A stretch of DNA of 64,000 bases from Desulfuromonadaceae bacterium (GCA_028681335.1 JAQUIT010000007.1:950-64949); one strand, 5' to 3'. Positions 2,734-64,000 are shown, counted from the stretch's first letter. The notes: generated by a model from the sequence alone, not told the origin. Program-made: numbers and translations.

Positions 2734-3127
2734 GATTCTCCAATTCTGTGCCGAGCATTTCGCGGATCGCCAGCGGTATCCTCCTGGCTTTTAATGTTGG
2801 ACCTATGCAGGCCAATGTGACCAACCCTTCTACGAGTAACTTGTTATCATGCTTCCTTACTATTTTTTGGCTGAGCGTAATCGATGACCCACCACTACGG
2901 ACCGGACAGGTGGCAACCGAGAGAAGGTCGTCATGAAGAGCTGGATATCTGAAATGAATTTCAAGTTTTACCACCGGAAAAACGAAGCCGTTACCGGCAA
3001 GCACGGCTACACTAAAACCATGGCTGCGAAAATACTCAGTTCTCGCCCGCTCCATATACTTAAGGTAATTGGCATGGTAAACGACTCCACCGGAATCCGT
3101 ATCCTCGTAATAAATTCGAACATCCAT
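2726..3127 (-). CDS. YbgC/FadM-type 4HBT hotdog acyl-CoA thioesterase
   Basis: 133 aa. N-terminus RIYYEDTDSGGVVYHANYLKYMERARTEYF is the classic YbgC active-site Asp region. Confidence 0.85.
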   Translation of the reverse strand: MDVRIYYEDTDSGGVVYHANYLKYMERARTEYFRSHGFSVAVLAGNGFVFPVVKLEIHFRYPALHDDLLSVATCPVRSGGSSITLSQKIVRKHDNKLLVEGLVTLACIGPTLKARRIPLAIREMLGTELENLV

Positions 3128-3372
3128 TGACTATCGCTACTCCATCTATGCTATTGGCTTAGTTTTGCCTATCCGGGTTGATTACTCTAGTGCAGATTCT
3201 ATTCATCTGCAACTTATTCTCTGATATTACACTTCAAAAGGCTTATTTTATCAAAATACGGCCAAAAATTGGCCTGAAGACCAATTTCCATAAAACGCAT
3301 AGCAAGATAAGGGACTCTAGAAAACAAAGCTCTGGAGCCTTATTTTGGGGCATCACCCTCTGACCCCCCGTT

Positions 3373-4035: not shown

Positions 4036-5930
4036 TGTTCCGCACTATCCTTCCATGATGAGGACTTCAAGGCGATAGACAGGATCGATATGGCAGCGGG
4101 TGTCACCCCGGGGATCCTGGAAGCCTGCCCAAGTGTATCGGGTCTGTTTTTTGTGAGCTTTTCACGAACTTCGGTTGTCAGGCTTTTAATTGATGCATAA
4201 TCAAGAAGCGAGGGGATACATGTTTTTTCCAGTTTCTTAGACTGCTCTACCTGCTCGAGCTGACGGTCAATATAGCCCTTATATTTTGTCTGTATTTCAA
4301 CCTGTTCACGTATCGCTGCGGGGGTTTCACGTGAAACAGTGTCCAGTTCTGCCAGGTCAGAATAACTTACATCCGAACGTTTCAGAAGGTGTTCCAGAGT
4401 ATTACCTTTCTGAAGACCTTCTATACCCATCCTCGCAAGAACATCCAACTGATGTGGCGAGTGTGACATACGCGTCACCGAGATACGCTCCAATTCCTCC
4501 GATATCATGCGTCGCTTCTCAGTAAAAACATCATACTCCTGCTCCGTTACAAGACCCAGCCGATACCCTGCATCACGCAGACGCAGATCGGCATTGTCTT
4601 CGCGTAAGAGCAACCGGTATTCTGCCCGCGACGTGAACATACGATACGGTTCTTTGGTCCCGAGCGTCACGAGATCGTCAATCATGACGCCTATATAGGC
4701 CTGACTTCTCCCCAGCACGAGAGGATCTTGCCCTTTAACGCGAAGAGCGGCATTGATGCCGGCCATAAGCCCCTGCCCCGCCGCCTCTTCATAGCCGGAA
4801 GTACCATTGATCTGTCCGGCATGATACAGGTTAGTAAGCAACTTCGTTTCGAGAGTATTGTGTAACTGGATTGGATCGACGTAATCGTATTCAATCGCGT
4901 AAGCCGGGCGCATAATTTCAACCCGCTCGAGGCCAACAATTGAACGATAAAAAGCGATCTGAATATCTATCGGGAGCGACGTCGACATGCCACTGGGGTA
5001 AACTTCGATTGTATCAAGGCCTTCCGGTTCAATAAAGGTTTGGTGACGGTCCTTCTCTGGAAAACGCACAACCTTGTCTTCAATCGACGGACAGTAACGC
5101 GGGCCAACACCTTCTATAATGCCCGAATAGAGCGGTGAACGGTCAAGGCCGGAGCGTATAATATCGTGAGAACGTTGATTGGTATACGCGATGTGACAGG
5201 GAAGTTGAGGCATCGTGATCCGTTCCGTTGATAGCGAAAACGGCAGCGGATTTTTGTCACCATATTGCGGTTCTAGCTTTGTAAAATCAATGGAACGGGC
5301 ATCTAGTCTTGCCGGCGTTCCTGTCTTTAGCCGGCCGACCTGGAAACCAATGGTGCGAAGTTGGTCCGAAAGCCCAATCGACGGCTGATCACCGGCACGG
5401 CCTCCCGGATAGTGGTTGAGACCAATATGGATAAGTCCACGCATAAACGTGCCGGTCGTAACAACAACTGTTTTTGAGATAAACCTGATCCCAGACTGCA
5501 GTTCAACGCCTCGAAGTTCACCATTTTCCAGATAAAGAGAGGTAACCTCTCCCTGCTTGAGATCAAGGTTGATTTGCTGTTCAAGGACGCGTTTCATCCT
5601 GAGTCGATACAGTTGTTTATCTGCTTGGGCGCGCGAAGCCCTTACTGCAGGCCCCTTTTTGGTGTTGAGAATACGAAACTGAATGCCGGTAGCATCTATG
5701 TTTTTGGCCATCTCGCCACCAAGAGCATCAATTTCTTTTACCAGATGCCCCTTAGCGAGGCCGCCTATAGACGGATTGCAGGACATGAGAGCTATGGCAT
5801 CAAGGTTGATGGTCAGCAACATCGTACGGCACCCCATGCGGGCAGAAGCCAATGCAGCTTCACACCCGGCGTGTCCGGCACCGACAACAATTACGTCATA
5901 GAGCTGATCATAGGTCATCATAAGTCCCAC
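4032..5930 (-). CDS. mnmG: tRNA uridine 5-carboxymethylaminomethyl modification enzyme MnmG (GidA)
   Basis: 632 aa. FAD motif YDVIVVGAGHAGCEAALASARMG with full-length GidA-like sequence. Confidence 0.97.
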   Translation of the reverse strand: MGLMMTYDQLYDVIVVGAGHAGCEAALASARMGCRTMLLTINLDAIALMSCNPSIGGLAKGHLVKEIDALGGEMAKNIDATGIQFRILNTKKGPAVRASRAQADKQLYRLRMKRVLEQQINLDLKQGEVTSLYLENGELRGVELQSGIRFISKTVVVTTGTFMRGLIHIGLNHYPGGRAGDQPSIGLSDQLRTIGFQVGRLKTGTPARLDARSIDFTKLEPQYGDKNPLPFSLSTERITMPQLPCHIAYTNQRSHDIIRSGLDRSPLYSGIIEGVGPRYCPSIEDKVVRFPEKDRHQTFIEPEGLDTIEVYPSGMSTSLPIDIQIAFYRSIVGLERVEIMRPAYAIEYDYVDPIQLHNTLETKLLTNLYHAGQINGTSGYEEAAGQGLMAGINAALRVKGQDPLVLGRSQAYIGVMIDDLVTLGTKEPYRMFTSRAEYRLLLREDNADLRLRDAGYRLGLVTEQEYDVFTEKRRMISEELERISVTRMSHSPHQLDVLARMGIEGLQKGNTLEHLLKRSDVSYSDLAELDTVSRETPAAIREQVEIQTKYKGYIDRQLEQVEQSKKLEKTCIPSLLDYASIKSLTTEVREKLTKNRPDTLGQASRIPGVTPAAISILSIALKSSSWKDSAEQ

Positions 5931-42069: not shown

Positions 42070-45000
42070 ATGCAACAACACCATAAGTTTAGTGCGGCCG
42101 GTACGGCAGTCTGTACCCTCACGCTTTTATCCGGATTAGCAGCCTCCCCCTGTTACGCCCTGCCGCAAAATGGTGCTGTTGTCGGAGGAACGGCGACCAT
42201 TGCGCAGCCGAACACCACGACCATGAATATCAATCAGACCTCCGCCAACGCCATCATAAATTGGCAGGGGTACAATATCGGTGCCAATGAGGCGGTAAAG
42301 TATATCCAGCCCGGCAGCAGCTCGATTGCCCTGAACAGGGTGACCGGTGTCGACCCCTCGTATATTTACGGCCTCCTCTCCGGCAACGGCCAGGTCTGGG
42401 TGATAAATCCCAACGGCCTGCTGGTCGGTCCCGGGGCAACGGTACAAACCGGCAGCTTCCTCGCCTCAACCATGAATATCACCGATGAAAATTTCCTCTC
42501 CGGTAAACATCTCTTCACCACCACGCCAGGCTCTCAGGCATCAATCGTCAACCAGGGAAATATTACGGCCGCAAACGGCGGCTATGTGGTTCTTGCCGCT
42601 CCCACGGTCAGTAATTCCGGCACGATCGTCGCGAACCTGGGCTCGGTGCATCTGGCATCGGGCGACACCGCGACTCTCACGATTGATAACGGCAGCCTCA
42701 TCAACGTGGCGGTAGACGGTGCGGTTGCTGCACAGGCGCTCGGGGTCTCCAATAGCGGCCGCATAAGCGCCGCTGGCGGCCAGGTGGTAATGACGGCAAA
42801 AGTTGCCGGCGACATCATGAAGAGTATCGTCAATAACGACGGGATTATCGAAGTAAATTCCACTCTTGATGGCAGCGGCTTTATCCTTCTGGACAGTGGC
42901 GACTACGGGATTGCGGCAAACAGCGGCATCCTCGATGCGTCGGGCAAAAACGCGGGAGAGGTTGGCGGTACGGTCAAGGTCCTGGGCGAGAAGGTGGCTC
43001 TATACGCCGGTTCAACCATTGATGTGTCCGGCGATGCCGGCGGCGGCACGGTACTGGCCGGCGGAAACTTCCACGGGGCAGGAGCGGAGCAGAACGCCTC
43101 CATGATCTATGTGGATAAAGACGCTTCCATAAAGGCCGATGCGCTCACTAATGGTAACGGCGGCACGGTGGCGGTCTGGTCGGATGATGCGACCCGTTTT
43201 TACGGCACCATATCCGCAAAAGGGGGGGCTAAGGGGGGCAACGGCGGCTTCGCCGAAGTGTCCGGCAGGCATTCATTGACCTATGCGGGGCTTGTCAACC
43301 TCGGCGCGGCAAAAGGTGCGACCGGGACGCTGCTGCTCGACCCTGACGAAATCACCATCATTCACGGTGCCGGCGACACAAATATTCTGGTAACCGGCAC
43401 AAGTCCCTTTGACGATACAAGTTCCGGCAGTGGTTCTCTTCTTTCCGATGGCACACTTACTACCCAGCTGGGCACTGCAAGCGTTTCGGTTATAACCTCA
43501 ACAGGCAATATAACCTCCAACTCCGGTGTGATTATCGATATTAACAGCAACACGCTGACGCTTGACTCTGCGAAAGACATTACACTGGGTGGTCTCTTCA
43601 GCGACACCGGCGCAGCAGGCACCCTCGCGTTGAAAATAGGTCAAAGCGGCAGCGGCGGGACGCTCACCATTCCCGGTACCACCACGATCGATGCGAATAA
43701 CGTGACCGTTAGCGGCGGAACCGGAAGCGACACGATAAACGTCACTCGTGATGCGGACATGACGCTCACGAATACAGCGCTGACGGTCGGTACCGCCTAT
43801 ACACTCAACCACGCGAGTATTGAGTCTGCCGTCCTGACGGGTGGTGCGGGCGACAATGTCATCGATGCCGGTGGTTGGGGAGGATCCGCTTCGATCTATG
43901 ATACCGGCGGTGCGGATACGCTCACCGGCAATGGTGCGCATACGACCCTCATCGGTTCAAACAGCGGCTCAACGTTTGCAATATCAGGATCGAATGCCGG
44001 TACGCTCAACGGTGTTACAACGTTTTCCGGGATCACAAGTCTGATCGGCGGTTCGAATGCAGACACCTTTACGTTGAACACAGGGAGTTTCAACGGCTCG
44101 ATTGCCGGCGGTGGCGGCACTGACACACTGGCCGCAACCAACGGCACCAACAGCTGGCAGGTGACAGGAGCGAACGCCGGCACGCTGAACACAACGACAA
44201 CCTTTTCGGGGATCACGAACCTGGCCGGCGGTGTGGACGCAGATACGTTCACGTTGGGAGTGCCGACTTTCGGCGGCTCGATTGCCGGTGGCGGCGGCTC
44301 CGACACGGTGGCTGCCGCTAACGGCACCAACAGCTGGCAGGTGACAGGAGCGAACGCCGGCACGCTAAACACAACGACGACCTTTGCGGGGATCACGAAT
44401 CTGTCAGGCGGTTCAGTGGCAGACACCTTCACGTTAGCCACGGATATTACCACTTTCAACGGCTCGATTGACGGCGGTGGCGGCACCGACACTCTCCATG
44501 TGACCAACGGGAGCAACGCCTGGCAGACGACCGGCACCAACAGCGGCACGCTGAACGCAACGACAGCTTTTTCCGGGATTACCAATCTGTCAGGCGGGTC
44601 CGGTGCCGATACAATCACACTGGGGGTTTCGACGTATAACGGCTCGATAACCGGCGGTGGCGGCATCGACACACTTGCCGCCAGTAACGGGGCCAATATG
44701 TGGCAGTCAACCGGTTCGAACAGCGGCACACTGAACACAACCACACTCTTTTCAGGAATTACGAATCTGACCGGCGGTTCCGGTGTTGATACGCTGACGG
44801 GCCGTAATGTCATCAATAGCTGGAATATTACGGGCGCCAAAGCGGTAACAGTTGACAGCATGAACGCAACAGGAATGGATGCACTGGCAGGCGGTTCGGC
44901 CGCCGATACCTTCAGGTTGGCTACCGGTGTTTCAACATTCAACGGTTCCGTTACCGGCGGTGGTGGGAGCGACTTACTTGCCGCTATCAATGGAACCAAC

Positions 45001-48000
45001 GCCTGGCAGGTGACGGGAGCGAATGCCGGTACGCTGAATGGAACGACATCCTTTTCAGGAATCACGAGCCTGAGCGGCGGTACCGGTGCGGATACGTTCC
45101 GCTTAGGTTCGGGTGTTCCGGTTTTCAGCGGCTCGATTACCGGTGGTGGTGGTGTCGACACCGTTGCTGCTACCAACGGGGTCAACTTGTGGCAGGTGAC
45201 CGGAAATAATGCCGGCACACTGAACGGCTCCACAATTTTTTCAGCGATTACCAACCTTGGCGGTGGCACCGATAGCGACACGTTAACGGGACTGAATTCA
45301 ACCAATACGACCGGGTGGAGTATTACCGGCATCAATGCTGCGACTATCAACAGCATGAACGCAAGCGGAATGGATGCGCTCGTCGGCGGCACCGGAAAAG
45401 ACATCTTTACGTTGGCTACGGGAATATCGGGTTTCAACGGCTCGATTACCGGCGGTGGCGGTATTGACACGCTGGCCGCCACCAACGGCACCAACAGTTG
45501 GCAGGTGACCGGGCCTGCTGTCGGAACGCTGAACGGTTCCACAACTTTTTCAGGGATCACAACTCTGGCGGGCGGTTCCGGAGCGGATACCTTCAGGCTG
45601 AGTGCGGATGTTCCGGTTTTCAACGGTTCGATCAGCGGCGGTGGCGGCGTTGACACGCTTGCTGCTACCAACGGCCCCAACGTCTGGCAGGTGACCGGAG
45701 CTAATGCCGGTACGCTGAATAGTACCACGGTCTTTTCGGGGATCACGAACCTGACCGGCGGCGTCGATAGCGATACGCTGAAGGGGCGCAATACCACCAA
45801 TGACTGGCGTATCACCGGCCAGACCGCCGCGACAGTGGACGGCATGAGTGCCACCTTGATGGATGCACTGGTTGGCGGTACGGCTGCGGACACATTTACA
45901 CTGAATGCCGGCATAGCGACTTTCAACGGGCCGATCAGCGGCGGTGGCGGCGTTGATACGCTTGCCGCTACCAATGGCCCCAACACCTGGCAGGTGACCG
46001 GAGCTAATACCGGCACACTGAACGCGACCACAACTTTTTCCGGGATGACGAATCTGACCGGTGGCTCGGATGCAGACGTGTTTACGCTTGGCACGGGGGT
46101 AACAAGTTTCAACGGTTTGATCGCCGGTGGTGGCGGTACCGACACACTGGCGATGACTGACGGCAGTAACGCATGGAAACTCGGCGGAGCTAATGCCGGT
46201 ACGCTGAACACGACGACTGTTTTCTCCGGGATCACCAACCTTAACGGCGGCACGGATACTGATACCCTCACGGGTACTAATCAGACGTACACCTTGGACA
46301 ACCTTATTCAGGACAAGGGGAGCAACGGCAACGTAAACTGGACGTCAATGGAGAATCTGACCGACACCGCTGCGGGTGTCTTCAAATTTGGCACGGCAGG
46401 GAGCGTCTCAGGCAACATTGCCGCCTCGGGCGGTACGCTGGATTACACCGACCGCACCATAGCAGTAAACATGAACCTGGCCGCCGGTACCGGCACCGGT
46501 ATCGGCATCGGCGGTGCCTGGAGCGGGATAGGCCACGTGATCGGCAGCGGTAACGCCGACACTCTCAGTGGCACCTCGCAAACCTACAACCTGACCGCAG
46601 CCAATGCAGGTAACAATGGCGTTGTCTCCTGGACATCATTTGAGAAAATAGATGACAGCGGCATCGGCACACTAACGACCTCAGGCGGTCAGACCTACAA
46701 CCTGACGGGCGCCGACAGCGGGACTGTGACAACGCTGCTGCCGGGTGGCTACACCGGCATCGGAAACCTTCATGATGCGGGCGCCGGCATTTTCAGGTTC
46801 AGCACTGGCGGTGCAGTATCCGGCGGCATCACGGCAACGGACGGCACGCTGGACTATTCAGGAGCCGCGGGGCCGGTTGCACTGAACCTTAGTTCAAAAA
46901 CCGGCAGCGGTATCGGTACCACGTGGAGTGGAATCACTACCGTGACCGGCAGTGGCGGTTTACTGGATACTATTGGCGGAACTAACGCCACCTACAACCT
47001 GACTGCGGCCAATGCCGGCAACAGCGGCGGCATTTTCTGGACTTCATTTGAGAAGATAGCCGACACCGGGACCGGATCCATCACGACAGGCGGCGGCCGG
47101 ACCTTCAACCTGACCGGCGCCAACAGCGGTGACGTAACAACCTTGCTGCCGGGCGGCTACACGAACATTGGTAACCTGTCGGATTCCGCTGCAGGGAACT
47201 TCCTGTTTGGACCGGGTGGCGCTGTTTCCGGAAATATTACTGCTGATAACGGCACATTGGCTTACGCCGCTTATAATGCCGACGTACACGTCAATCTCGG
47301 CGGCACGGTCGGCGCTACCACCGGCATCGGCGGCAGCTGGAGCGGCATCGGCACGGTGACCGGCAGCAGCGGCTTGCAGGACACTATTGGCGGGACCAAT
47401 GCAACCTACAACCTGACGGGGCTGAACAGCGGCACCGACGGCATCGTCTCCTGGACATCCTTTGAGAACCTGCATGATACGGCTGCCGGGATATTCAAAT
47501 TTACTGCAGCAGGCGGCGTCACGGGCGGTGTCTCCGCAACAGGCGGTACGCTGGACTATTCGGAACTCACCGGGCCGGTAACGGTGGATCTGACGGCACA
47601 GAGTGCTCCCAATATCGGCACCGCCTGGAGCGGGATTACCACGGTGGCCGGCAGCGCAAGCGGTGCCGATAGTCTCACCGGCAGCAACCAGGCGTACAAC
47701 CTGACAGGCGTTGACACCGGCAGCAACGGCAGCCTCAACTGGGTTTCGTTCGAGAATATCTTCGGCGTGGGCGGAAACAACTCTTACAGCGGAATCAGCG
47801 GTTCTCTGCTCTCCGGCGCGATCAGTGACAGCGGCAGCGCTGCCACCGTCCAGGGCTATCTACAGACCGGGGGCGCCCAGACCTATGCCGGTCCGGTGAC
47901 GCTTGCAGGCGCGACAACCATGACTTCAAACGGCTCCGGTGACATCACCTTTGCCGGCACGGTAGCCAGTGACGCGACTCCCCGTGACCTGACGGTAGGT

Positions 48001-49083
48001 ACCTCCGGCGTAATCACCTTTGCCGCTGCTGTCGGAGCAACACCGCTCAACAGCCTGACGATCAATGCCGGGGGCACGACCCATATCAACGGCGGTCTGG
48101 TTGCAACGAGCGGAGCGGCCGGCCAGACGTACAACAACGACGTTGTCCTTGCCACTGACACTACTTTGAACGCCGCTTCCGGCGCAATTTCCGAGGGAAG
48201 CAGCGGTTCCATCACGACTCCGGGGCTTTTGACCACACTGTCCGGCAGTGGTCAGGACCTCGTCGGCAACGGCGCCAATGCCATCGCCTTCTTTGATGCC
48301 ACCAACAGCAGCAGCGGTGATATCAACCTGACTAACAATGCACAGCCGCTGACCATTGCCGGTATTAACCAGGCCGGTGGCGGACTCAACATAACAAACA
48401 GCGGTGCAATTACCAGTTCCGGCCCCTTGACGGTAAGCGGTACAACGTCAATAACCGCTGTCGGTCAGCCGATTACCCTGACCAATGTCAATAATGACTT
48501 TGTCGGCAGCGTGGCCGTAACCGGAGCAGCAACCGAAATCACGGACAAAAATGATCTGGCCGTGGTTCTGGATACCACCGGCACGACAACCGTGACAGCC
48601 GGCGCAAACCTGACTCTCGCCGGTACGAGTACGGACACTGTTTCAGCAACAGCCGTTGCCAAGGTGACTTTGCTCGACCCGACGGCTTCACTGCTCACGG
48701 TAACCGGCGCAACAATCGTCGGCACCATGAACAATTCCAGCCCGCTCAATCTTACGACAACCAGTGATCATGACCCGATTACCGTTAACCTGACCGGTAA
48801 CCTCCCCTTCCTTACGCTTGAAGGTGATATAAAAACGCAAATCATGAGCCTCGGTTTATACAATGGGGCGATCGTCATGGGCACTGAGATGGATCATTAT
48901 AAGGAGTCGATTGACTTGAGAGCGGCAACCACAGCCCTGGCTGTCAACGCCGAACGATTCGGTACCATGGGGATGCAGGAGTCTTTTGGTAGCTTTTTCA
49001 ACATTGCGCCGCCGGCGAGCGGCATAGATGGCAGCCAGGCATTTATCGCGCCTGAGACGGAGCCGAAACTCATTGATCGCTGA
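42070..49083 (+). CDS. Giant TpsA exoprotein (filamentous-haemagglutinin-type TPS domain + repetitive beta-helical passenger)
   Basis: 2337 aa. Signal peptide, then a TPS domain with ANAIINWQGYNIGANEAVKY and VWVINPNGLLVG (NPNG motif). The rest is Gly/Thr/Asn/Ala-rich repeats. No VENN or other pretoxin motif at the C-terminus. Confidence 0.9.
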   Translation: MQQHHKFSAAGTAVCTLTLLSGLAASPCYALPQNGAVVGGTATIAQPNTTTMNINQTSANAIINWQGYNIGANEAVKYIQPGSSSIALNRVTGVDPSYIYGLLSGNGQVWVINPNGLLVGPGATVQTGSFLASTMNITDENFLSGKHLFTTTPGSQASIVNQGNITAANGGYVVLAAPTVSNSGTIVANLGSVHLASGDTATLTIDNGSLINVAVDGAVAAQALGVSNSGRISAAGGQVVMTAKVAGDIMKSIVNNDGIIEVNSTLDGSGFILLDSGDYGIAANSGILDASGKNAGEVGGTVKVLGEKVALYAGSTIDVSGDAGGGTVLAGGNFHGAGAEQNASMIYVDKDASIKADALTNGNGGTVAVWSDDATRFYGTISAKGGAKGGNGGFAEVSGRHSLTYAGLVNLGAAKGATGTLLLDPDEITIIHGAGDTNILVTGTSPFDDTSSGSGSLLSDGTLTTQLGTASVSVITSTGNITSNSGVIIDINSNTLTLDSAKDITLGGLFSDTGAAGTLALKIGQSGSGGTLTIPGTTTIDANNVTVSGGTGSDTINVTRDADMTLTNTALTVGTAYTLNHASIESAVLTGGAGDNVIDAGGWGGSASIYDTGGADTLTGNGAHTTLIGSNSGSTFAISGSNAGTLNGVTTFSGITSLIGGSNADTFTLNTGSFNGSIAGGGGTDTLAATNGTNSWQVTGANAGTLNTTTTFSGITNLAGGVDADTFTLGVPTFGGSIAGGGGSDTVAAANGTNSWQVTGANAGTLNTTTTFAGITNLSGGSVADTFTLATDITTFNGSIDGGGGTDTLHVTNGSNAWQTTGTNSGTLNATTAFSGITNLSGGSGADTITLGVSTYNGSITGGGGIDTLAASNGANMWQSTGSNSGTLNTTTLFSGITNLTGGSGVDTLTGRNVINSWNITGAKAVTVDSMNATGMDALAGGSAADTFRLATGVSTFNGSVTGGGGSDLLAAINGTNAWQVTGANAGTLNGTTSFSGITSLSGGTGADTFRLGSGVPVFSGSITGGGGVDTVAATNGVNLWQVTGNNAGTLNGSTIFSAITNLGGGTDSDTLTGLNSTNTTGWSITGINAATINSMNASGMDALVGGTGKDIFTLATGISGFNGSITGGGGIDTLAATNGTNSWQVTGPAVGTLNGSTTFSGITTLAGGSGADTFRLSADVPVFNGSISGGGGVDTLAATNGPNVWQVTGANAGTLNSTTVFSGITNLTGGVDSDTLKGRNTTNDWRITGQTAATVDGMSATLMDALVGGTAADTFTLNAGIATFNGPISGGGGVDTLAATNGPNTWQVTGANTGTLNATTTFSGMTNLTGGSDADVFTLGTGVTSFNGLIAGGGGTDTLAMTDGSNAWKLGGANAGTLNTTTVFSGITNLNGGTDTDTLTGTNQTYTLDNLIQDKGSNGNVNWTSMENLTDTAAGVFKFGTAGSVSGNIAASGGTLDYTDRTIAVNMNLAAGTGTGIGIGGAWSGIGHVIGSGNADTLSGTSQTYNLTAANAGNNGVVSWTSFEKIDDSGIGTLTTSGGQTYNLTGADSGTVTTLLPGGYTGIGNLHDAGAGIFRFSTGGAVSGGITATDGTLDYSGAAGPVALNLSSKTGSGIGTTWSGITTVTGSGGLLDTIGGTNATYNLTAANAGNSGGIFWTSFEKIADTGTGSITTGGGRTFNLTGANSGDVTTLLPGGYTNIGNLSDSAAGNFLFGPGGAVSGNITADNGTLAYAAYNADVHVNLGGTVGATTGIGGSWSGIGTVTGSSGLQDTIGGTNATYNLTGLNSGTDGIVSWTSFENLHDTAAGIFKFTAAGGVTGGVSATGGTLDYSELTGPVTVDLTAQSAPNIGTAWSGITTVAGSASGADSLTGSNQAYNLTGVDTGSNGSLNWVSFENIFGVGGNNSYSGISGSLLSGAISDSGSAATVQGYLQTGGAQTYAGPVTLAGATTMTSNGSGDITFAGTVASDATPRDLTVGTSGVITFAAAVGATPLNSLTINAGGTTHINGGLVATSGAAGQTYNNDVVLATDTTLNAASGAISEGSSGSITTPGLLTTLSGSGQDLVGNGANAIAFFDATNSSSGDINLTNNAQPLTIAGINQAGGGLNITNSGAITSSGPLTVSGTTSITAVGQPITLTNVNNDFVGSVAVTGAATEITDKNDLAVVLDTTGTTTVTAGANLTLAGTSTDTVSATAVAKVTLLDPTASLLTVTGATIVGTMNNSSPLNLTTTSDHDPITVNLTGNLPFLTLEGDIKTQIMSLGLYNGAIVMGTEMDHYKESIDLRAATTALAVNAERFGTMGMQESFGSFFNIAPPASGIDGSQAFIAPETEPKLIDR
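44047..46290 (+). repeat. In-frame tandem repeats, family 1 (180-bp / 60-aa unit, some about 100-aa extended units; about 10 units)
   Basis: Unit GGSxADTFTLxxxxxxFNGSIxGGGGxDTLAATNGTNSWQVTGANAGTLNxTTxFSGITNL. For example, 44101-44220 and 44281-44400 share an identical 47-mer aacggcaccaacagctggcaggtgacaggagcgaacgccggcacgct. A higher-order period of about 165 aa is visible. Confidence 0.9.
46290..47770 (+). repeat. In-frame tandem repeats, family 2 (about 135-aa / 400-bp unit, about 3.5 units)
   Basis: Unit TYNLTAANAGNxGxxSWTSFEKIxD...NLTGAxSGxVTTLLPGGYTxIGNL...GGAVSGxITAxxGTLxY...WSGIxTVTGSxGLxDTIGGTNA. Confidence 0.85.
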
Positions 49084-54347: not shown

Positions 54348-54362
54348 AAATCCCCCCTGCCC

Positions 54363-54510
54363 CCCTTTCATAAAGGGGGGAACCTTGAAATCACTGCACC
54401 GAATGTACAAGAGAACGTTTTTAAGCATCCCTCTTTTCATAAGTGGGAACCTTGAAATCACCGCACCGAATGTACAAGAGAACATTTTTAAGCATCCCCC
54501 TTTATGAAAG
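54363..54510. repeat. Two tandem 67-bp repeats, each headed by a CCCTTT...AAAGGG mini-palindrome
   Basis: GGAACCTTGAAATCAC(T/C)GCACCGAATGTACAAGAGAAC(G/A)TTTTTAAGCATCCC starts at 54379 and again at 54446. A third mini-palindrome CCCCCTTTATGAAAGAGG follows. Confidence 0.9.
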
Positions 54511-57227: not shown

Positions 57228-57245
57228 ACTAACCCCTCCAAACCT

Positions 57246-57322
57246 CCCCTTATCAAGGGAGGCTTAAAGGCTTCCCCCCTGATAAGTACCCTCTGGGGCA
57301 TAAAGGGGGATTGAGGGGGGGG
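57246..57322. repeat. G/C-tract palindromic element, same family as 54575-54606
   Basis: Hairpin CCTCCCCTTATCAAGGGAGG (57246-57265) and the 18-mer AAAGGGGGATTGAGGGGG (57302-57319) followed by a G-run. Confidence 0.8.
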
Positions 57323-57371
57323 GAAACCAGCGGTATACTTAATTACTATTTATATACGGAGGAAACTACCG

Positions 57372-58421
57372 ATGAAAAAAGCGCTTATCACCGGCATAAC
57401 CGGCCAGGACGGCTCCTATCTGGCGGAACTTCTCCTTGCCAAAGGATACGAAGTTCATGGCATGATCCGCAGATCCTCCTCTTTCAACACCGCTCGTATC
57501 GACCACCTCTACCGCGACCCGCACGAAAAAGATGTGCGCATGTTCCTCCACTACGGCGACCTGAACGATGCCAGCTCCATCAACATTCTGCTGCGCAATA
57601 TCCAGCCTGATGAAATCTACAACCTCGGTGCCCAGAGTCATGTACGGGTCTCCTTTGATGTCCCTGAGTACACCGGTGAAGTAGACGGTCTGGGTGCCGT
57701 GCGTATCCTTGAGGGAATCCGCGAAACCGGCCTGCAGACAAAATTCTACCAGGCATCATCGTCAGAACTGTACGGCAAGGTAGTGGAAACCCCGCAGAAG
57801 GAGACCACCCCCTTCTACCCCCGTTCCCCCTATGCCTGCGCCAAAGCCTACGCCTTCTACATCACCCAGAACTACCGCGAAAGCTACGGCATGCACGCCT
57901 CCAACGGCATACTCTTCAACCACGAATCGCCCCGTCGCGGTGAGACCTTTGTTACCCGTAAAATCACCCGCGCAGCCGCCCGTATCAAGCTCGGTATGCA
58001 GGAGTGTCTCTACCTCGGCAACATCGATGCGAAAAGGGACTGGGGCTTTGCCGGCGATTACGTCGAAGCGATGTGGCGGATGCTGCAGCAGGAGCAGCCG
58101 GACGATTACGTCATCGCCACCGGCGAGACCTACATGGTGCGCACCTTTGCCGAAAAAGTCTTTGCCCGTCTCGGCATGCCGCTGGAATGGCAGGGGAGCG
58201 GTGTTGATGAAGTGGGAACCGACACGGTAACCGGCAGGGCGGTCATTCGCATCGACCCGAAATACTTCCGTCCGGCGGAAGTTGACCTGCTTCTCGGTGA
58301 TCCGGCCAAGGCAAGGAAACAGCTGGGATGGGAGCTGAAGACCAGTTTCGAAGAGCTCGTGAATATGATGACCGATGCCGACTTCACGCTTGCAGAGCGG
58401 GAGAAGCGGGCGGACGGGTGA
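57372..58421 (+). CDS. gmd: GDP-mannose 4,6-dehydratase
   Basis: [40 protein letters not shown]...; YACAKAYA catalytic motif; 349 aa. Confidence 0.96.
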
Positions 58422-58436
58422 CTCATGAACAATAAC

Positions 58437-59195
58437 GTGGCTAAAGAAAAGATTTAATACTGTTTTGGCCACGGATTAACACGGATGTTCACGGATAACG
58501 GCAAACCATAGATGCCTTGGTTTAACCAATAAAAGTTTTACAGGTTCAGATTTCATCCGTGTTCATCAGTGTCCATCCGTGGCTAAAGAAAAGATTTAAG
58601 ACTGTTTTGGCCACCGATTAGCACGAATGTTCACGGATAACGGCAAACCATAGATGCCTTGGTTTAACCCAAAAAAGTTTTACAGGTTCAGATTTCATCC
58701 GTGTTTATCAGTGTCCATCCGTGGCTAAAGAAAAGATTTAAGACTGTTTTAGCCACCGATTAGCACGAATGTTCACGGATAACGGCAAACCATAGATGCC
58801 TTGGTTTAACCCAAAAAAGTTTTACAGGTTCAGATTTCTTCCGTGTTTATCAGTGTCCATCCGTGGCTAAAGAAAAGATTTAAGACTGTTTTAGCCACCG
58901 ATTAGCACGAATGTTCACCGATAACGGCAAACCAAGATGCCTTGGTTTAACCCATAAAAGTTTTGCAGGTTCAGATTTCATTCGTGTTTATCAGTGTCCA
59001 TCCGTGGCTAAAGAAAAGATTTAAGACTGTTTTAGCCACGGATTAGCACGAATGTTCACCGATAACGGCAACAACCAGAATTCATGGTTCCATCCGGAAG
59101 ATTTTTTGTAGGTTTTGATTTCATTTGTGTACATCCGTGGCTGAAAAAAGATTCTAGAATAAATTTCCCACCGACTATACATATAGTCACTGAGG
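58437..59195. repeat. Tandem array of five 141-142-bp units plus one degenerate unit; each unit is itself a long imperfect palindrome
   Basis: GTGGCTAAAG recurs at 58437, 58579, 58721, 58863 and 59004 (periods 142, 142, 142, 141), with a degenerate copy at 59137. Unit: TTTAGCCACCGATTAGCACGAATGTTCACGGATAACGGCAAACC...CAGATTTCATCCGTGTTTATCAGTGTCCATCCGTGGCTAAA plus an 18-bp linker GAAAAGATTTAAGACTGT. Confidence 0.95.
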
Positions 59196-59213
59196 ATGAC
59201 AAAAAGGTCCATT

Positions 59214-59600
59214 ATGCCAGATGATGCCTTTGCGGAACTGCTTTACAAGGACACCAGTTTTCAGATTATTGCTGCTGTCTATGAAGTACACAACGTTCTT
59301 GGCTATGGATTTTTGGAGGCTGTTTACCAAAAAGCGCTTGAAAAAGAACTTCGCTTAAGGGATCTAAAAGCCGAGGTACAGAAAGAGATAACAGTTACGT
59401 ATAAAAATGAAGATATTGGCTCGTACTATGCCGATATAATAGTAAACGATGAAATAATTCTAGAGCTGAAGGCTGTAGAAAATTTGACAAAAGCCCACGA
59501 ATCTCAACTACTGAATTACCTGAAGGGGACCGGACTAAAGCTTGGTTTTTTGATCAATTTTGGGAAAGAGAAAGCCATATATAAACGTATGGTATTGTGA
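59214..59600 (+). CDS. GxxExxY-family protein (PD-(D/E)xK-like fold)
   Basis: Signature GYGFLEAVYQKAL (G-x-x-E-x-x-Y), then ADIIVNDEIILELKAV...LLNYLK. ATG 59214 has a better SD spacing than 59196. AT-rich relative to its neighbours. Confidence 0.85.
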   Translation: MPDDAFAELLYKDTSFQIIAAVYEVHNVLGYGFLEAVYQKALEKELRLRDLKAEVQKEITVTYKNEDIGSYYADIIVNDEIILELKAVENLTKAHESQLLNYLKGTGLKLGFLINFGKEKAIYKRMVL

Positions 59601-59604
59601 TTTT

Positions 59605-59664
59605 TCCGTTTATAGTCGTGTTCGGCGGTTAAACAAAGAATCGAAATACTTTTGGCTGCGGGAT
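59605..59664. repeat. Half-elements of the palindromic family (right arm after GxxExxY, then a left-arm-like start)
   Basis: TCCGTTTATAGTCGTGTTCGGCGGTTAAA (59605-59633) parallels ATCCGTGTTTATCAGTGTCCATCCGTGGCTAAA. TTTTGGCTGCGGGAT (59650-59664) parallels TTTTGGCCACGGAT. Confidence 0.6.
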
Positions 59665-59720
59665 CTAGCGAAGAATTGATTCTTCGTTGATTTGAGCCGA
59701 CGTGATGTGGAGGAGATAGG

Positions 59721-60152
59721 GTGCCAACTCAACCGCTTGATGCAAATGTTGGTGTTTCTGATACGGTTTCAACAACTGTCCAGCAGTTGTCTGATATGCT
59801 TGTCAGCATCAATGGGATTGAGCTGGCGATCCTGATCGGTAGCCGGGCAACCGGCACTGCTGGCCCGGAGAGTGATTGGGATATTGCCATCCAGTGGAAA
59901 CGCGGAATGGATTTTATGCAGCAGCTCGCCGCCACCGAACAGCTTCGTAGAGCCGTTGCAAAAATGCTTGGTATCTCAGAGCAGGAAGTTGACCTGATTG
60001 ACCTCCCGACTGCCCGGCTTGCCATGCGGGCGGTGGTTGCTGAAGATGGAATCGCGCTAAAGGGAGAGGACAGTCTGGCCTGGCACCATTTTCTGCAGCG
60101 GACCTGGCGGGAGCTTGAAGAACAATATTGGGAGAAGACCTATGCGGCTTGA
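59721..60152 (+). CDS. MNT-type nucleotidyltransferase (type VII antitoxin-like)
   Basis: 143 aa. LAILIGSRATGTAGPESDWDIAIQW carries the GSxxxG...DxD nucleotidyltransferase motif. GTG start. Confidence 0.8.
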   Translation: MPTQPLDANVGVSDTVSTTVQQLSDMLVSINGIELAILIGSRATGTAGPESDWDIAIQWKRGMDFMQQLAATEQLRRAVAKMLGISEQEVDLIDLPTARLAMRAVVAEDGIALKGEDSLAWHHFLQRTWRELEEQYWEKTYAA

Positions 60153-60561
60153 TCTCTACCAGGCGGAAACCGCCCTCATTGCCCAGGACCAGACAGCCCT
60201 GCTGGATGAAGCCCGCGCAACAATGCTTGCAGGTGGTGCTCTGTCACGTTTGGAGCAAAACGGTGTCCTGCATGCGATCCAGGTATTGGTAGAAAATGCG
60301 ATCGGCAAGGCTAAGCAGCTGCTTAAGGCCGCAGGAAAGCACGTGCCGTTGTCTGCCTATGACGGTTTTCTCGGCGTGGCAGCGCTTGGTGCGGTGAAAA
60401 GCAGTGACCTGACCGCCTGGAATGCCGCCATCGGACTGCGTAACAGGATCGTTCATGACTACATGAATATTGACATGCTACGGGTACTGGAGTTGGTAAA
60501 AAACGAGCAGTATCGGTTTATTACAGACTTCCTGCTGGCACCAAATGACTTTCTGGAATAG
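60142..60561 (+). CDS. HEPN/DUF86 (HepT-like) toxin
   Basis: The R-x4-H HEPN motif lies in GLRNRIVHDYMNID. ATG 60142 overlaps the MNT stop by 11 nt. Confidence 0.8.
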   Translation: MRLDLYQAETALIAQDQTALLDEARATMLAGGALSRLEQNGVLHAIQVLVENAIGKAKQLLKAAGKHVPLSAYDGFLGVAALGAVKSSDLTAWNAAIGLRNRIVHDYMNIDMLRVLELVKNEQYRFITDFLLAPNDFLE

Positions 60562-60606
60562 GAAATAGATTGGATTAAAACCAGAAACGGCGGTTCCCCT
60601 AGAAGA

Positions 60607-60660
60607 GTTTTTATAGGTTTAGATTCCATCCGTGTTTATCTGTGTCCATCCGTGGCTAAA
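60607..60660. repeat. Right arm of the palindromic element family after the HEPN gene
   Basis: GTTTTTATAGGTTTAGATTCCATCCGTGTTTATCTGTGTCCATCCGTGGCTAAA is nearly identical to the right arm of the 142-bp units. Confidence 0.85.
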
Positions 60661-60705
60661 TAGTATGTTATACCAAAGTATCTGATTTATCGTGGAGTAG
60701 TTATA

Positions 60706-61926
60706 ATGTCCTGTCCTGAAAACAAAAACCTGGATCTACAAACCCCTCCGACTGAACCTGACGAAATAAACCTGCTCGACCTACTTCTTGTCCTGGCAAA
60801 AAACTGGAAGATGATTATTGGCGTGCCCTTTATCGTGGCGGTTATCACTGCCATCTTCAGTTTGTCCATGCCCAATATCTACACCGCCAAGGCAATGATC
60901 CTGCCGGGAGACGATAACAGCAGCGGGTTGATGAGTGCGATGATGGGTCAACTGGGTGGCCTGGCCGGTCTGGCAGGTGGTTTGGGTGGTGCCACCAAAG
61001 CGGACCTTTATGTGACCATGCTCAAAAGTGAATCGCTTAAAGACCCGATCATCGATCAATTTAAGTTGATGCAGCTGTATAAAGCCAAGTTTCGCGCCAA
61101 TGCCTACAAAACACTCGGCAGCAATGCGGCCATCAGCACCGGCAAAAAGGATGGTGTCATCACCATTGCGGTCTCCGACAAAGACCCTAAGCTGGCTGCG
61201 GCCATTGCCAATGCCTATGTGGATGAGTTGGGCAAAATGGCGGCAAAGTTGAGCATGTCCGGTGCCGGCAGGAGCAGGGTCTTCCTCGAAGAGCGTCTTA
61301 CCAAGGCCAAGGTTGATCTGGCGGCGGCGGAGGAAACACTGAAGAGTTTCCAGACGAGGAACAAGGTGGTGGCCGTCACCGATCAGGCCAAGGCGACGCT
61401 GGAAGGGGTGGCGCAGCTGCGTGCCCAGTTGGTTGCCCAGGAAGTGCAGATGGCAACCATGCGGCAGCAGTTCACCGATGAGAGCCAGGAGATCAGATCG
61501 ATCAAGGCTACCATCGCCAGTCTGCGCGGGCAGGTAGCCCGTCTGGAGGGGGGCGGTTCGGCAGGCTCCATGCCCGGCGTCGGCGCCATGCCGCAGTTGG
61601 GGCAGGAATACATGCGTCTGATGCGCGAGTTCAAGATCCAGGAAACGCTGGTGGAGCTGTTGACCAAGCAGTACGAGATGACCAAGCTGAATGAGGCCAA
61701 AGATGTGGTGCCGTTCCAGCTGTTGCAGTCGGCCAGGGTGCCGGAGCTGAAGAGCAAGCCGAAGCGGAGCAGGATTGTTATCATGGCTGCCTTTGCCAGC
61801 GGTTTTCTGATGGTGCTGGTTGCTTTTATGCGTGAGTTTGGTGCGAAGATGAATGACGAGGATCGTACGCGGTGGCAGGAGCTGAAGAGGGTGCTGCCAC
61901 TCCCGCGCCGGTTCAGGCAGGAATAA
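60706..61926 (+). CDS. Polysaccharide co-polymerase / chain-length determinant (Wzz + GNVR type, no kinase domain)
   Basis: 406 aa. N-terminal EINLLDLLLVLAKNWKMIIGVPFIVAVITAIF (Wzz TM1), a long coiled-coil periplasmic region and a C-terminal TM after KPKRSRIVIMAAF. Confidence 0.85.
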   Translation: MSCPENKNLDLQTPPTEPDEINLLDLLLVLAKNWKMIIGVPFIVAVITAIFSLSMPNIYTAKAMILPGDDNSSGLMSAMMGQLGGLAGLAGGLGGATKADLYVTMLKSESLKDPIIDQFKLMQLYKAKFRANAYKTLGSNAAISTGKKDGVITIAVSDKDPKLAAAIANAYVDELGKMAAKLSMSGAGRSRVFLEERLTKAKVDLAAAEETLKSFQTRNKVVAVTDQAKATLEGVAQLRAQLVAQEVQMATMRQQFTDESQEIRSIKATIASLRGQVARLEGGGSAGSMPGVGAMPQLGQEYMRLMREFKIQETLVELLTKQYEMTKLNEAKDVVPFQLLQSARVPELKSKPKRSRIVIMAAFASGFLMVLVAFMREFGAKMNDEDRTRWQELKRVLPLPRRFRQE

Positions 61927-61962
61927 CGAGAAGATGTTCGCGGCAGAACAAACTTCAAAGCC

Positions 61963-62055
61963 TTTAGCTTCAGGATTCCCCAGGATTTCGACGGATTACG
62001 GCAAAGACTTTTTGGTTTTAGAATCCCGGGTAATCGCAGTAATCCCGAGGCTAAC
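61963..62055. repeat. Complete diverged unit of the palindromic family after wzz
   Basis: TTTAGCTTCAGGATTCCCCAGGATTTCGACGGATTACGGCAAAGAC...GAATCCCGGGTAATCGCAGTAATCCCGAGGCTAAC. It has the same architecture, with the arm repeats changed on both arms (CAGGATT / AATCCCG). Confidence 0.75.
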
Positions 62056-62330
62056 AGACTTAAGGCCTTTGGGATCAAGGCAATAGGCAGAAGAGTTGAA
62101 GAGCAGAGAAATAATCAATCTGTACTGAGAGAAGAACCTGTCGCTTACAATAGTGGTTTTGACCACAAAAGAGACTTTTAAGCTCGAAAAACAGCTGTTT
62201 ATGGGGTGTAAAACTTTAAATATTAAATGGTTACCTTGGTCCGACCCCCAAGCAACGCATCCGGAGAGGACGACCATGGGGCAATTTAGTAAAGCAGCCT
62301 GTCCCATTTACTCTAAAGGATAATTACTAA

Positions 62331-63467
62331 ATGTTGAAAGTTCTGTCTGTTTTTGGTACCCGCCCTGAAGCAATCAAGATGGCTCCTGTCATCAAAGAGC
62401 TGGAAAAGTATCCCGATCTGTTCAAGAGCATTGTCTGTGTTACCGCTCAGCATCGCCAGATGCTCGATCAGGTGCTCAGTCTTTTCAATATCGTCCCCGA
62501 CTATGACCTGAATATCATGAAGCCGGGACAGGATCTTACCGATATAACCTGCAACGTCATACAGGGACTGAAACCTGTTCTCGAAAAAGAGCGCCCCGAT
62601 ATCGTTTTGGTACATGGTGATACTTCTACAACCATGGCTGCTTCGATAGCAGCTTATTACGCGAGAGTAAGGGTTGGGCATGTTGAAGCAGGGCTCCGGA
62701 CTGGCGATAAATTTGCTCCGTTTCCCGAGGAGATGAATAGGCGGGTTACGGGTTCTTTGACGGATCTTCATTTCGCACCGACTGGAGCCGCGCGGCAGAA
62801 TCTCCTCAGAGAAGGTGTTACAGACAGCACTATTTATGTCACAGGTAATACGGTAGTTGATGCACTTCTTTTAGTTTCAGAGATGCTCACCAAGAATCCT
62901 GAGCTTGACCGCAAATTTACTAATGAGTTCTCTTTTCTGGATCCAAGTAAAAAACTCATTCTTGTCACCGGCCATCGTAGAGAGAATTTTGGATCAGGTT
63001 TTGAAAATATCTGCTTCGCCCTTGTCGACATCGCCAGCAGGAACCCGGACGTGGAGATACTCTATCCAGTTCATCTGAATCCAAATGTTCAGGAACCGGT
63101 GCAACGGATTCTAGGTGCCGGGAATATAAGTAACGTGCATCTTATCGAACCGGTTGACTATCTACCATTTGTATATCTGATGAACCGATCATATCTGATC
63201 ATCACTGATTCCGGTGGGGTACAGGAGGAGGCACCGTCTCTCGGCAAACCGGTGCTGGTCATGCGCGACACGACTGAGAGGCCGGAGGCAGTCGAAGCGG
63301 GTACCGTCAAGCTGGTGGGAACGGATAAGGCAAAAATCGTTACTGAAACGCTGGCGCTCCTGTATGATCAAGCAGCCTATGATCATATGGCTAAGGCTCA
63401 TAACCCGTATGGGGATGGACAGGCCGCGTCACGGATCTGTCAGGTGCTTGGTAAAACCATTTTGTAA
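62331..63467 (+). CDS. wecB: UDP-N-acetylglucosamine 2-epimerase (non-hydrolysing)
   Basis: [28 protein letters not shown] and [20 protein letters not shown]. Confidence 0.95.
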
Positions 63468-63568
63468 CCGCCGATAGGCGTAGAGAAACCAAGATAAGGG
63501 GTTAATTTCTACCCAAAAACAGTTTTTGAACTTTTCGGCGTGCATCCGCTTTTATCGGCGGTTACAAA
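63461..63568. repeat. Complete diverged unit of the palindromic family spanning the wecB stop
   Basis: TTTGTAACCGCCGATA (63461-63476, containing the wecB TAA) and TATCGGCGGTTACAAA (63553-63568) are 16/16 complementary across a 76-bp loop. The right arm CTTTTCGGCGTGCATCCGCTTTTATCGGCGGTTACAAA parallels the array's right arm. Confidence 0.8.
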
Positions 63569-63592
63569 TAGTTTTTAAGGAAGGTGTCTTAC

Positions 63593-64000
63593 ATGCAATT
63601 CGAAACAATCTCCGTTATCGGCCTCGGTTACATCGGCCTACCAACTGCGGCAGTCTTTGCTTCACGCAAGAAAAAGGTGATCGGTGTTGATGTTAACCAG
63701 CACGCTGTTGATACGATAAACCAGGGTAGAATCCACATCATTGAACCCGACCTGGATATGGTCGTGCAGGCAGCAGTGTCGCAAGGTTATTTGCGTGCCA
63801 CGAGCACCCCCGAATCTGCCGATGCTTTTCTGATTGCTGTACCAACTCCATTCAAGGATGGCCACCACCCCGATTTGAGTTACATAGAAGCGGCGAGCAA
63901 AGCTATTGCACCGGTGCTAAAAAAGGGCGATCTGGTTATCTTGGAATCCACATCGCCGGTCGGCGCTACCGAGCAGATGGCTGATTGGTTAGCTGAGGTT
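63593..64000 (+). CDS. wecC: UDP-N-acetyl-D-mannosamine dehydrogenase (UDP-glucose/GDP-mannose dehydrogenase family), N-terminal 136 aa only
   Basis: Not in the ORF track because it runs off the window. ATG 63593 gives MQFETISVIGLGYIGLPTAAVFASRKKKVIGVDVNQHAVDTINQGRIHIIEPDL...FLIAVPTPF. Confidence 0.85.
   Translation, partial: MQFETISVIGLGYIGLPTAAVFASRKKKVIGVDVNQHAVDTINQGRIHIIEPDLDMVVQAAVSQGYLRATSTPESADAFLIAVPTPFKDGHHPDLSYIEAASKAIAPVLKKGDLVILESTSPVGATEQMADWLAEV

Follow-up and report, generated by a model that had tools for sequence, protein, structure and literature searches.

The 64,000-nt stretch of Desulfuromonadaceae bacterium considered here (GCA_028681335.1, JAQUIT010000007.1:950-64949; "the window") carries a polysaccharide region that, by profile-based family assignment, forms a single co-directional gene run from gmd through wecB and beyond. 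Spacers of this run hold palindromic elements made of two inverted arms of short tandem heptads around a loop, and these elements, their relatives in other genomes and the small genes associated with them are the subject of this report. Unit types are named after their heptads (type A, CACGGAT; type B, CAGGATT; type C, CGCCGAT), and two related loci, whose Wzz proteins are 93% (L204) and 91% (L203) identical to that of the window, provided type-B and type-C units for comparison. A second assembly (L002) was identical to the window and hence uninformative. A promoter-like site was found upstream of gmd by promoter scan, and on its 3′ side wecB is followed by a UDP-sugar dehydrogenase gene (wecC) and then by more polysaccharide genes. 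The features of the region are, in order:

57372-58421: gmd, the first gene of the run ahead of the array
58436-59150, plus strand: type-A array of five palindromic units (A1 58464-58587, A2 58606-58729, A3 58748-58871, A4 58890-59012, degenerate A5 59031-59148)
58517-58529, no strand assigned: apical loop core TTGGTTTAACCAA of unit A1, recurring in A2-A4 and, by alignment, kept in type-C and GGGGAT-type units of other organisms
59214-59600, plus strand: GxxExxY/PDDEXK_3 gene, 128 aa, small Cas4-like PD-(D/E)XK nuclease (TIGR04256, E = 2.6e-41)
59622-59633, plus strand: remnant of a type-C right-arm terminus, TCGGCGGTTAAA, 21 nt past the GxxExxY stop codon, an exact 12-mer match to L203 type-C units (z = 4.7; 1/500 shuffles)
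59721-60152, plus strand: MntA antitoxin gene (nucleotidyltransferase; NF047752, E = 4.2e-19)
60142-60561, plus strand: HepT toxin gene (HEPN RNase; NF047751, E = 7.5e-17)
60609-60660, plus strand: isolated right half of a type-A unit, comprising its right arm and the 3′ portion of the loop, 92% identical to the right half of the array over 52 nt, with an exact 17-mer match
60706-61926: wzz
61963-62055, plus strand: complete type-B unit after wzz, CAGGATT heptads, loop with ACGGCAAAG...TTTTGGTTTTAG as in the type-A loop (z = 21.8 against L204 type-B units)
62331-63467: wecB (stop codon 63465-63467)
63452-63577, plus strand: complete type-C unit after wecB, CGCCGAT heptads, its left terminus including the wecB stop codon (z = 17.3 against L203 type-C units)

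The array begins 15 nt past the gmd stop codon with a right-arm tail (CGTGGCTAAAG). Tandem Repeats Finder reported positions 58436-59071 as a repeat with a period of 142, 4.5 copies and 96% matches, and a degenerate fifth unit extends to ~59150. Each type-A unit of ~124 nt is an imperfect palindrome that opens with TTTRGC and three CACGGAT heptads recurring every 10 nt, continues with a loop of ~58 nt and closes with three ATCCGTG heptads and GCTAAA; successive units are spaced by ~18 nt (GAAAAGATTTAAGACTGTT). The 33-nt arms are 73-82% complementary, and the array units fold as long imperfect hairpins with z scores of -3.6 to -6.9 relative to shuffled sequence. In the type-C unit after wecB, the 25-nt arms are 88% complementary, including a terminal stem paired at 16/16 positions (TTTGTAACCGCCGATA/TATCGGCGGTTACAAA), and the fold reaches z = -5.9. 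An earlier reading of the DNA made from the sequence alone (the sequence-only reading) had called complete units after wecB and after wzz; the former is confirmed, and the latter is secure by its match to L204, although taken alone it folds weakly (z = -1.4), no better than shuffles. Likeness to the array is limited to TTCgACGGATwACGGCAAA in the wzz unit (z = 5.0) and to ACCCAAAAAcAGTTTT in the wecB unit (z = 3.2). Unit ends take the forms TTTRGCC...GGCYAAA, TGTAACC...GGTTACA and TGGAACC...GGTTAAA. The heptads differ among type A, type C and a GGGGAT type found on an unrelated metagenome contig (L166), but all three share unit length, termini and the apical core TTnTGGTTTAaCCCaAAAAg, with a unit period of 138-142 nt across the aligned types, which bears out the proposal of one element family with conserved architecture. 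A CsrA-binding reading of CACGGAUG, based on a likeness to the ANGGA motif, was dropped, since other heptad types have no GGA and the motif would be base-paired.

The elements do not, as had been supposed, punctuate every gene boundary of the locus. The spacers downstream of wecC (L001 14114-14283, 16327-16453 and 18472-18518) contained no element, either on reading the sequence or by a heptad-triplet scan; the same scan placed 7 of its 13 window matches within 58469-61999 and none in spacers of the next 8 kb of the locus, and the arm 17-mer occurred nowhere else in the window, its other 58 kb included. With the spacers past wecB empty, the elements thus stand at four or five boundaries. The 275-nt spacer between the type-B unit and wecB (62056-62330) holds no recognizable unit and gave a weak, sub-threshold Rfam match to Bacteroidales-1 (E = 0.52). 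At gathering thresholds the Rfam scan of the whole window returned no match, and permissive E-values over 58300-63700 returned noise only. Scans found no terminator-like or promoter-like site within the units, which fits read-through transcription, and a single promoter-like match, at 59174-59202 of the minus strand, which falls in the spacer that separates A5 from the GxxExxY gene. The stems are bordered by 5′-TTT...AAA-3′, so that no U-tract follows the stem on either strand. A role of the units as terminators or promoters was therefore rejected.

According to the sequence-only reading, the GxxExxY gene and the MntA/HepT pair each lie between a left-arm-like and a right-arm-like half. The right half after the HEPN gene is real, as is the exact type-C terminus after the GxxExxY gene. 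The left-arm start placed at 59650-59664, ahead of MntA, was not confirmed (z = -0.1, with TTTTGGC alone in common), and a left-arm match before the GxxExxY gene scored no better than shuffles (z = 1.3-1.4). Chance similarity is accordingly rejected for the right halves and the complete units and accepted for the claimed left halves; bracketing by both halves, not demonstrable in the window, proved to be the rule for GxxExxY and four-helix-bundle genes elsewhere. The closest GxxExxY relative (L123, 83% identical) likewise lies between two right arms, and its GxxExxY stop codon directly abuts the apical core, as the HepT stop codon does in the window.

The heptads were also said to differ concordantly on both arms. 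MAFFT alignment across heptad types misplaced the right arms, and RNAalifold gave just -2.07 kcal/mol; an arms-only alignment with explicit structure was used instead of a covariance model. It took 13 units, belonging to four heptad types, with the first GAT and the final ATC as anchors, and treated them as a mirrored 34-pair stem. In this alignment, whose 13 units represent only about four independent types, 77.4% of cells were paired, compared to 60.1% with shuffled partners (0/500 reaching the observed value) and 37-42% with partners slid by 1-3 columns. The covariation score was 0.51, compared to 0.20 for shuffled partners (again 0/500) and 0.11-0.16 for slid ones, and both sides had changed in 26 of the 34 pairs. 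The arm changes are concerted, even if one of the heptad pairs originally cited, CAGGATT/AATCCCG, contains an A·C and is not fully complementary. The further step of taking this covariation as selection for the hairpin did not hold up. Transcript-level selection would be expected to leave G·U above A·C on the sense strand, and RNA-level selection was rejected after this test proved negative twice. Moreover, in 43 complete CACGGAT-type elements a common G/A change in the second heptad was compensated in only 5 of 17 cases, and indels and register shifts were symmetric on both arms. The concerted pattern looks like copying or symmetrization of whole arms at the DNA level, which explains it equally well, rather than base-by-base compensatory selection. 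Cleavage of a transcribed stem would be compatible with such a pattern.

Comparison with the two close relatives showed how quickly the site changes. L204 is 89.5% identical to the window up to 58435, the base before the array, and the two align again (88.6% identity) from 60659, within the closing GGCTAAA, and continue to do so across wzz and the first type-B unit; this resumption falls exactly where the 60609-60660 half unit ends. Between these anchors the window has 2223 bp (array, GxxExxY, MntA/HepT and half unit), compared to 243 bp in L204, which are two intact empty type-B units. In keeping with the sequence-only reading, a relative without the small genes thus has an empty unit at the site. 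On the 3′ side of wzz, L204 carries at least four tandem type-B units (the contig stops before wecB) as opposed to one in the window, for at least six in all. In L203, six tandem type-C units with a period of ~139 nt precede wzz. The units and genes differing across L204, L203 and the window mark this as a hot, fast-changing site. L203 also contains (positions 1-4940) ~14 small toxin-antitoxin genes upstream of wzz, among them ParE/Unstab_antitox, PemK, HicA and an MNT-like gene with a 148-aa open reading frame (ORF). Their boundaries carry a separate repeat, GGAGTAAATAAATCTGTCCCGTTTTCT, at 640, 1510, 2384, 3404 and 3473, which was found neither in the window nor in any other locus, and the MNT/HEPN-like pair of L203 is unrelated to MntA/HepT of the window.

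The association between arms and small genes is clearest for GxxExxY. In a Chthoniobacteraceae metagenome-assembled genome (MAG; L039), found by an arm-sequence match, perfect 35/35 arms surround exactly one GxxExxY ORF. From metagenomes we collected 80 loci whose GxxExxY proteins are 45-83% identical to that of the window. For 27 of 77 loci, the score of the upstream flank against the reverse complement of the downstream flank exceeded the 99th percentile obtained with mismatched-locus controls, and in 34 loci ungapped arms of at least 24 nt, 91% complementary, tightly bracket the gene. In 67 of 81 GxxExxY loci (83%), at least one flank contains a heptad triplet no farther than 160 nt away, against a background of 1% for ordinary sequence and 6.8% for other parts of these loci; the expectation that small genes elsewhere are flanked by such arms was therefore borne out. 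More than 10 heptad variants were seen (CACGGAT, CACAGAT, CGCAGAT, CGCAGAC, ACAGGAT, CACGAAT, CGCAAAT, GGGGATA and others), the two arms of any one locus carrying matching versions, and protein pairs at least 73% identical have the same heptad or one differing by 1 nt, indicating that gene and arms evolve as one unit. The cargo is co-directional with its neighbors in 49 of 55 cases upstream and 44 of 54 downstream. Those neighbors are varied housekeeping genes, not polysaccharide genes alone, as judged from translated ORFs read by eye without a family-library scan. Cassettes end 8-20 nt ahead of the next start codon, and no target-site duplication or direct repeat was found around the 34 well-bounded ones. 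Arrays of empty units occur beside a gene-bearing unit in L133, L136, L139, L166 and L175. In L175 (975-2424), arms in direct and inverted orientation alternate with genes: right arm, leuD-like gene, left arm, GxxExxY, left arm, a 117-aa ORF without Pfam match, and right arm.

The GxxExxY protein is probably an active small PD-(D/E)XK nuclease, as judged from its conserved D...ExK motif (D74, E84 and K86) and from a predicted structure (predicted local distance difference test score of 91) whose best Protein Data Bank (PDB) fold matches were Cas4 SSO0001, MGME1 and lambda exonuclease. A PDB sequence search returned no match. Proteins 83-84% identical to that of the window (P0016/P0022) are encoded in a Pedobacter (Bacteroidota) MAG, and the 84%-identical copy indicates recent horizontal transfer between phyla. 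A literature search on GxxExxY returned nothing past family listings, subscription journals being mostly not covered. To our knowledge, the GxxExxY and four-helix-bundle/S23p families are both very common small families without a known function.

The arms themselves are widespread. Among the matches listed for species-representative genomes, the exact arm 18-mer TGTCCATCCGTGGCTAAA occurred in more than 120 stretches, compared to ~17 expected by chance, and these came from Planctomycetota, Verrucomicrobiota, Acidobacteriota, Nitrospinota, Nitrospirota, Gamma- and Betaproteobacteria, Desulfobacterales and Geobacteraceae. In at least 64 of 124 listed matches a matching left arm lay 59-230 nt upstream, giving complete non-coding palindromes. 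Other heptad types near the 18-mer matches were ATCTGCG, TTCAGTG, ATCCTGT, CTCCGTG, CGCAAAG and CGCCAAG. Some Planctomycetes MAGs contain many copies per genome, and an element frequently lies inside the loop of another (L093, L014, L082 and L121). In L093 (2912-4049), a 992-nt CACGGAT-type element with ORFs of 131 and 83 aa, neither with a Pfam match, sits within a CGCAGAT-type palindrome, itself within a CGCGGAGGA-type palindrome. In ~900 kb of CACGGAT-rich loci there was one GxxExxY gene only. Further palindrome families with arms of 7-9-nt tandem repeats were seen in Planctomycetes and Verrucomicrobia (CGCAAAG in L038, L069, L081, L084 and L098; CGCCAAG in L065 and L093; GTCCCAT in L075 and L099), which points to a far larger superfamily. 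Searches of the literature, with the same limited coverage of subscription journals, for the arm sequence, GxxExxY, PDDEXK_3 and PF05635 returned no description of such elements outside rRNA, and this widespread family is apparently undescribed outside that setting.

A second cargo family connects the elements to the intervening sequences (IVSs) of rRNA genes. Four-helix-bundle genes outside rRNA (PF05635, "23S rRNA IVS protein") are bracketed by inverted short-tandem-repeat arrays, with repeats such as GAGTGGA, GGTAAGA, GTTATNA and GTTTATT. A PF05635 gene in L113 (1-700) lies between two tRNA genes and is flanked by inverted ~21-nt repeats (GACAAATGACTTATAACTAAG, twice). None of the scanned ORFs of the window belongs to PF05635, the cargo there being GxxExxY and MntA/HepT, and a scan of viral contigs for four-helix-bundle genes found only 5 loci. 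In the 23S rRNA IVS of Coxiella burnetii, an S23p ORF occupies the loop of a stem formed by 28-bp terminal inverted repeats, three tandem GACAGAT heptamers (two or three, depending on the strain) lie just upstream of the ORF, and RNase III cuts within the stem, as mapped by rapid amplification of cDNA ends (PMC4990558). IVSs occur with and without ORFs and are held to be horizontally transferred (PMC11270868). Their origin and mechanism of mobility are not known (PMC4990558; PMC11270868), although Ralph and McClelland, as cited in PMC4990558, proposed that the ORF is needed for mobility.

The likeness to 23S rRNA IVSs with an S23p/23S_rRNA_IVP ORF, as in C. burnetii and Leptospira, extends to several features. 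Both have terminal inverted repeats that form a stem of ~28-35 bp, the arms in the window being 25-33 nt long and 73-88% complementary. Both have arms of tandem heptamers, GACAGAT three times in Coxiella compared to CACAGAT or CACGGAT, three per arm, here. In both, a small promoterless ORF fills the loop, ORF-less forms occur and heptamer copy number varies. Both show a patchy distribution suggestive of horizontal transfer, and non-rRNA four-helix-bundle genes are bracketed in the same way. In contrast, IVSs occupy helix 25 or 45 of 23S rRNA, whereas the elements described here lie in mRNA or tRNA spacers; they carry a GxxExxY nuclease gene, have toxin-antitoxin genes as neighbors and, when empty, stand in tandem arrays with a conserved apical core. 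RNase III cleavage is mapped in the Coxiella IVS, whereas the stems here are predicted ones. A search of the fetched loci for seven conserved 16S/23S rRNA motifs found two isolated 11-mer matches (L056 and L174), which were judged to be chance.

We put at roughly 0.5 the probability that the elements are non-ribosomal relatives of ORF-bearing rRNA IVSs, that is, selfish, horizontally spread heptad-repeat cassettes riding in transcribed operon spacers. Behind this reading stand the architecture, the breadth of the family, the link between gene and arms, the shared direction with neighboring genes and the turnover at an orthologous site. A cassette would consist of two inverted arms of short tandem heptads around either a conserved loop (the empty form, ~120 nt) or one small promoterless gene, typically encoding a GxxExxY PD-(D/E)XK nuclease or a four-helix-bundle protein, with toxin-antitoxin genes beside the units in the window. 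Cassettes would settle in transcribed spacers, oriented like the host operon, a placement in which the host would transcribe them. The arms could then pair in the transcript into a ~30-bp stem which, by analogy with Coxiella, RNase III would cut, splitting the polycistronic RNA at gene boundaries and freeing the loop or ORF segment; such processing may in turn affect expression. At the DNA level, units would amplify, shrink and replace each other by recombination between shared termini and spacers, the heptads changing on both arms together. Candidate movers are homing by the cargo nuclease, a transposase supplied in trans and simple unit-to-unit recombination.

Several observations weigh against a kinship with IVSs and against processing of the kind just outlined. 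No examined locus lies in an rRNA gene, so that the connection rests on architecture and one cargo family, with no direct intermediate. Heptads recur every 10-11 nt in the GxxExxY elements, whereas they are contiguous in Coxiella and in the four-helix-bundle elements. The small genes of the window have right halves only, 3′ of the genes, and left arms of their own are not demonstrable. The arms carry no RNA-type signature: on the sense strand of the 34 cassettes there were 18 G·U and 27 A·C among the mismatches, with 59 others, and in the units of the window and L204, which are just 74% paired, G·U and A·C numbered 21 and 20. This degree of pairing, together with the weak fold of the wzz unit, makes efficient RNase III cleavage uncertain here.

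One alternative is that the elements are DNA transposons of the MITE type (short for miniature inverted-repeat transposable element), their arms being terminal inverted repeats in which three heptads, one per helical turn, serve as binding sites for a transposase encoded elsewhere; the empty units would then be non-autonomous and the genes passengers. Short non-coding elements with terminal inverted repeats do fit this description, as do the 10-11-bp periodicity, the lack of an RNA-type wobble bias, the high copy number in some Planctomycetes MAGs and the nesting of elements. In size and intergenic position they also resemble ERIC, Correia/NEMIS and the Chunjie element of Geobacter uraniireducens, which are imperfect palindromes of ~100-200 nt in intergenic spacers, co-transcribed with operons as stable RNA hairpins, and Chunjie is reported to leave the operon unbroken on insertion. 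Nevertheless, we consider this explanation unlikely. The 34 well-bounded cassettes lack a target-site duplication, no transposase lies between such arms in ~200 loci, and no parent insertion sequence with the same ends and a transposase was found in those loci or the window, a search that did not extend to whole genomes. Heptads vary widely in otherwise homologous units, so that a transposase would need matching changes in specificity, and the regular tandem arrays with a fixed spacer suggest recombination or slippage over repeated transposition. Unlike MITEs, the arms are modular heptad arrays that can enclose a gene, and one arm sequence crosses phyla. Identity with Chunjie was rejected on its different size, 21-bp inverted repeats and 9-bp direct repeats. 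Repetitive extragenic palindromic (REP) sequences and their paired form, REPINs, are likewise extragenic and multi-copy, with inverted short-repeat pairs forming hairpins of ~100 nt, but they have a GTAG-type head that the elements lack and belong to one lineage, whereas heptad-triplet arms with a cross-phylum sequence are found here; no gene for a REP-associated tyrosine transposase (RAYT) was present in the available flanks (the genome was not searched).

Somewhat less probable still is homing-type spread driven by the cargo, in which the GxxExxY nuclease would cut empty units or cruciforms at the apex and repair from a gene-bearing copy would convert them, the arms supplying homology. The conserved catalytic motif and confident Cas4-like predicted fold favor this idea, as do the ORF that exactly fills the loop in L039, the cargo stop codons that abut the apical core in the window and L123, protein clades that follow heptad type, an abundance of empty units as potential targets and the proposal of Ralph and McClelland noted above. 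However, similar arms bracket four-helix-bundle genes that encode no nuclease, the ~900 kb of CACGGAT-rich loci yielded a single GxxExxY gene, and arms of ~35 bp offer little homology for repair. The tracking of heptads by proteins is equally expected from simple co-inheritance.

We regard as improbable a host-selected RNA punctuation system in which the host would keep the hairpins for processing or stabilizing the RNA and thereby setting how strongly the operon genes are expressed relative to one another, with small genes as tolerated insertions. Placement at successive boundaries of one co-directional operon, stable predicted hairpins, concerted arm changes and the lack of terminator signals would all suit such a role. 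Against it, the type, copy number and presence of units differ at orthologous boundaries of close relatives, the downstream half of the same locus has none, the stems are eroded without a G·U bias, and the same elements stand beside unrelated housekeeping genes across phyla.

An integron-like array, in which the palindromes would be attC-type recombination sites, clustered without an integrase of their own and used by a tyrosine recombinase whose gene lies elsewhere, is very improbable and was rejected as an attC reading: it would suit ~120-nt imperfect palindromes that keep structure rather than sequence and lie 3′ of small promoterless genes, toxin-antitoxin genes included, as well as arrays and gene content that differ among close relatives and the ~14 toxin-antitoxin genes of L203, but the unit ends have no RYYYAAC or GTTRRRY cores (by reading the ends; no attC model was run), the arms are symmetric heptad arrays and not R′′/L′′-L′/R′ boxes, the gene lies between two arms instead of preceding a single site, empty units stand in tandem with 18-nt spacers, the L203 toxin-antitoxin genes are bounded by a different repeat, and no integrase-like ORF was recognized in the 64-kb window or its 10-kb downstream flank (the upstream ORFs of the window were not all scanned against families). 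The cassette-like insertion of small genes suggested by the sequence-only reading fits in spirit, without attC cores. All in all, what that reading had observed is in large part real, and its interpretation is partly supported.

Other repeats were noted in the window. The PHO4-gmd spacer (57235-57330) contains a different, G/C-rich palindromic repeat (CCTCCAAACCTCCCCTTATCAAGGGAGG...GGGGGATTGAGGGGGGGG). A 67-bp tandem repeat of 2.1 copies at 54360-54503 contains CCCCCTTTTCATAAGTGGG, and AGGGGGATTG occurs twice at 54589 (region to 54607). Similar CCCC..AAGGGG palindromes are present in L033, L054 and L111. Within the ORF at 42070-49083 (2337 aa), positions 44017-44780 hold coding tandem repeats of 180 and 366 nt with 73-74% matches.

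How rRNA IVSs arise and move has been a question since 1990, and the present findings bear on it. The heptad-repeat architecture described for the Coxiella IVS is common outside rRNA, where it brackets the majority of GxxExxY genes in different phyla and, at one orthologous operon site, has turned over between close relatives. This gives a tractable route both to the origin of IVSs and to how such elements spread. For annotation, the repeats break assemblies, create spurious ORFs (for example, ...IRVHPWLK) and may cut operon transcripts. More speculatively, and less likely than not in our view, ORF-bearing rRNA IVSs might be just the part so far noticed of a class of minimal mobile cassettes that crosses phyla, heptad-repeat palindromes of ~0.1-0.6 kb that enter any transcribed spacer and are spread by their own 125-aa Cas4-like GxxExxY nuclease through structure- or heptad-guided cleavage at the apex and copying. 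If so, such nuclease-driven cassettes would be among the smallest autonomous mobile elements and would supply a mechanism for the mobility of IVSs.

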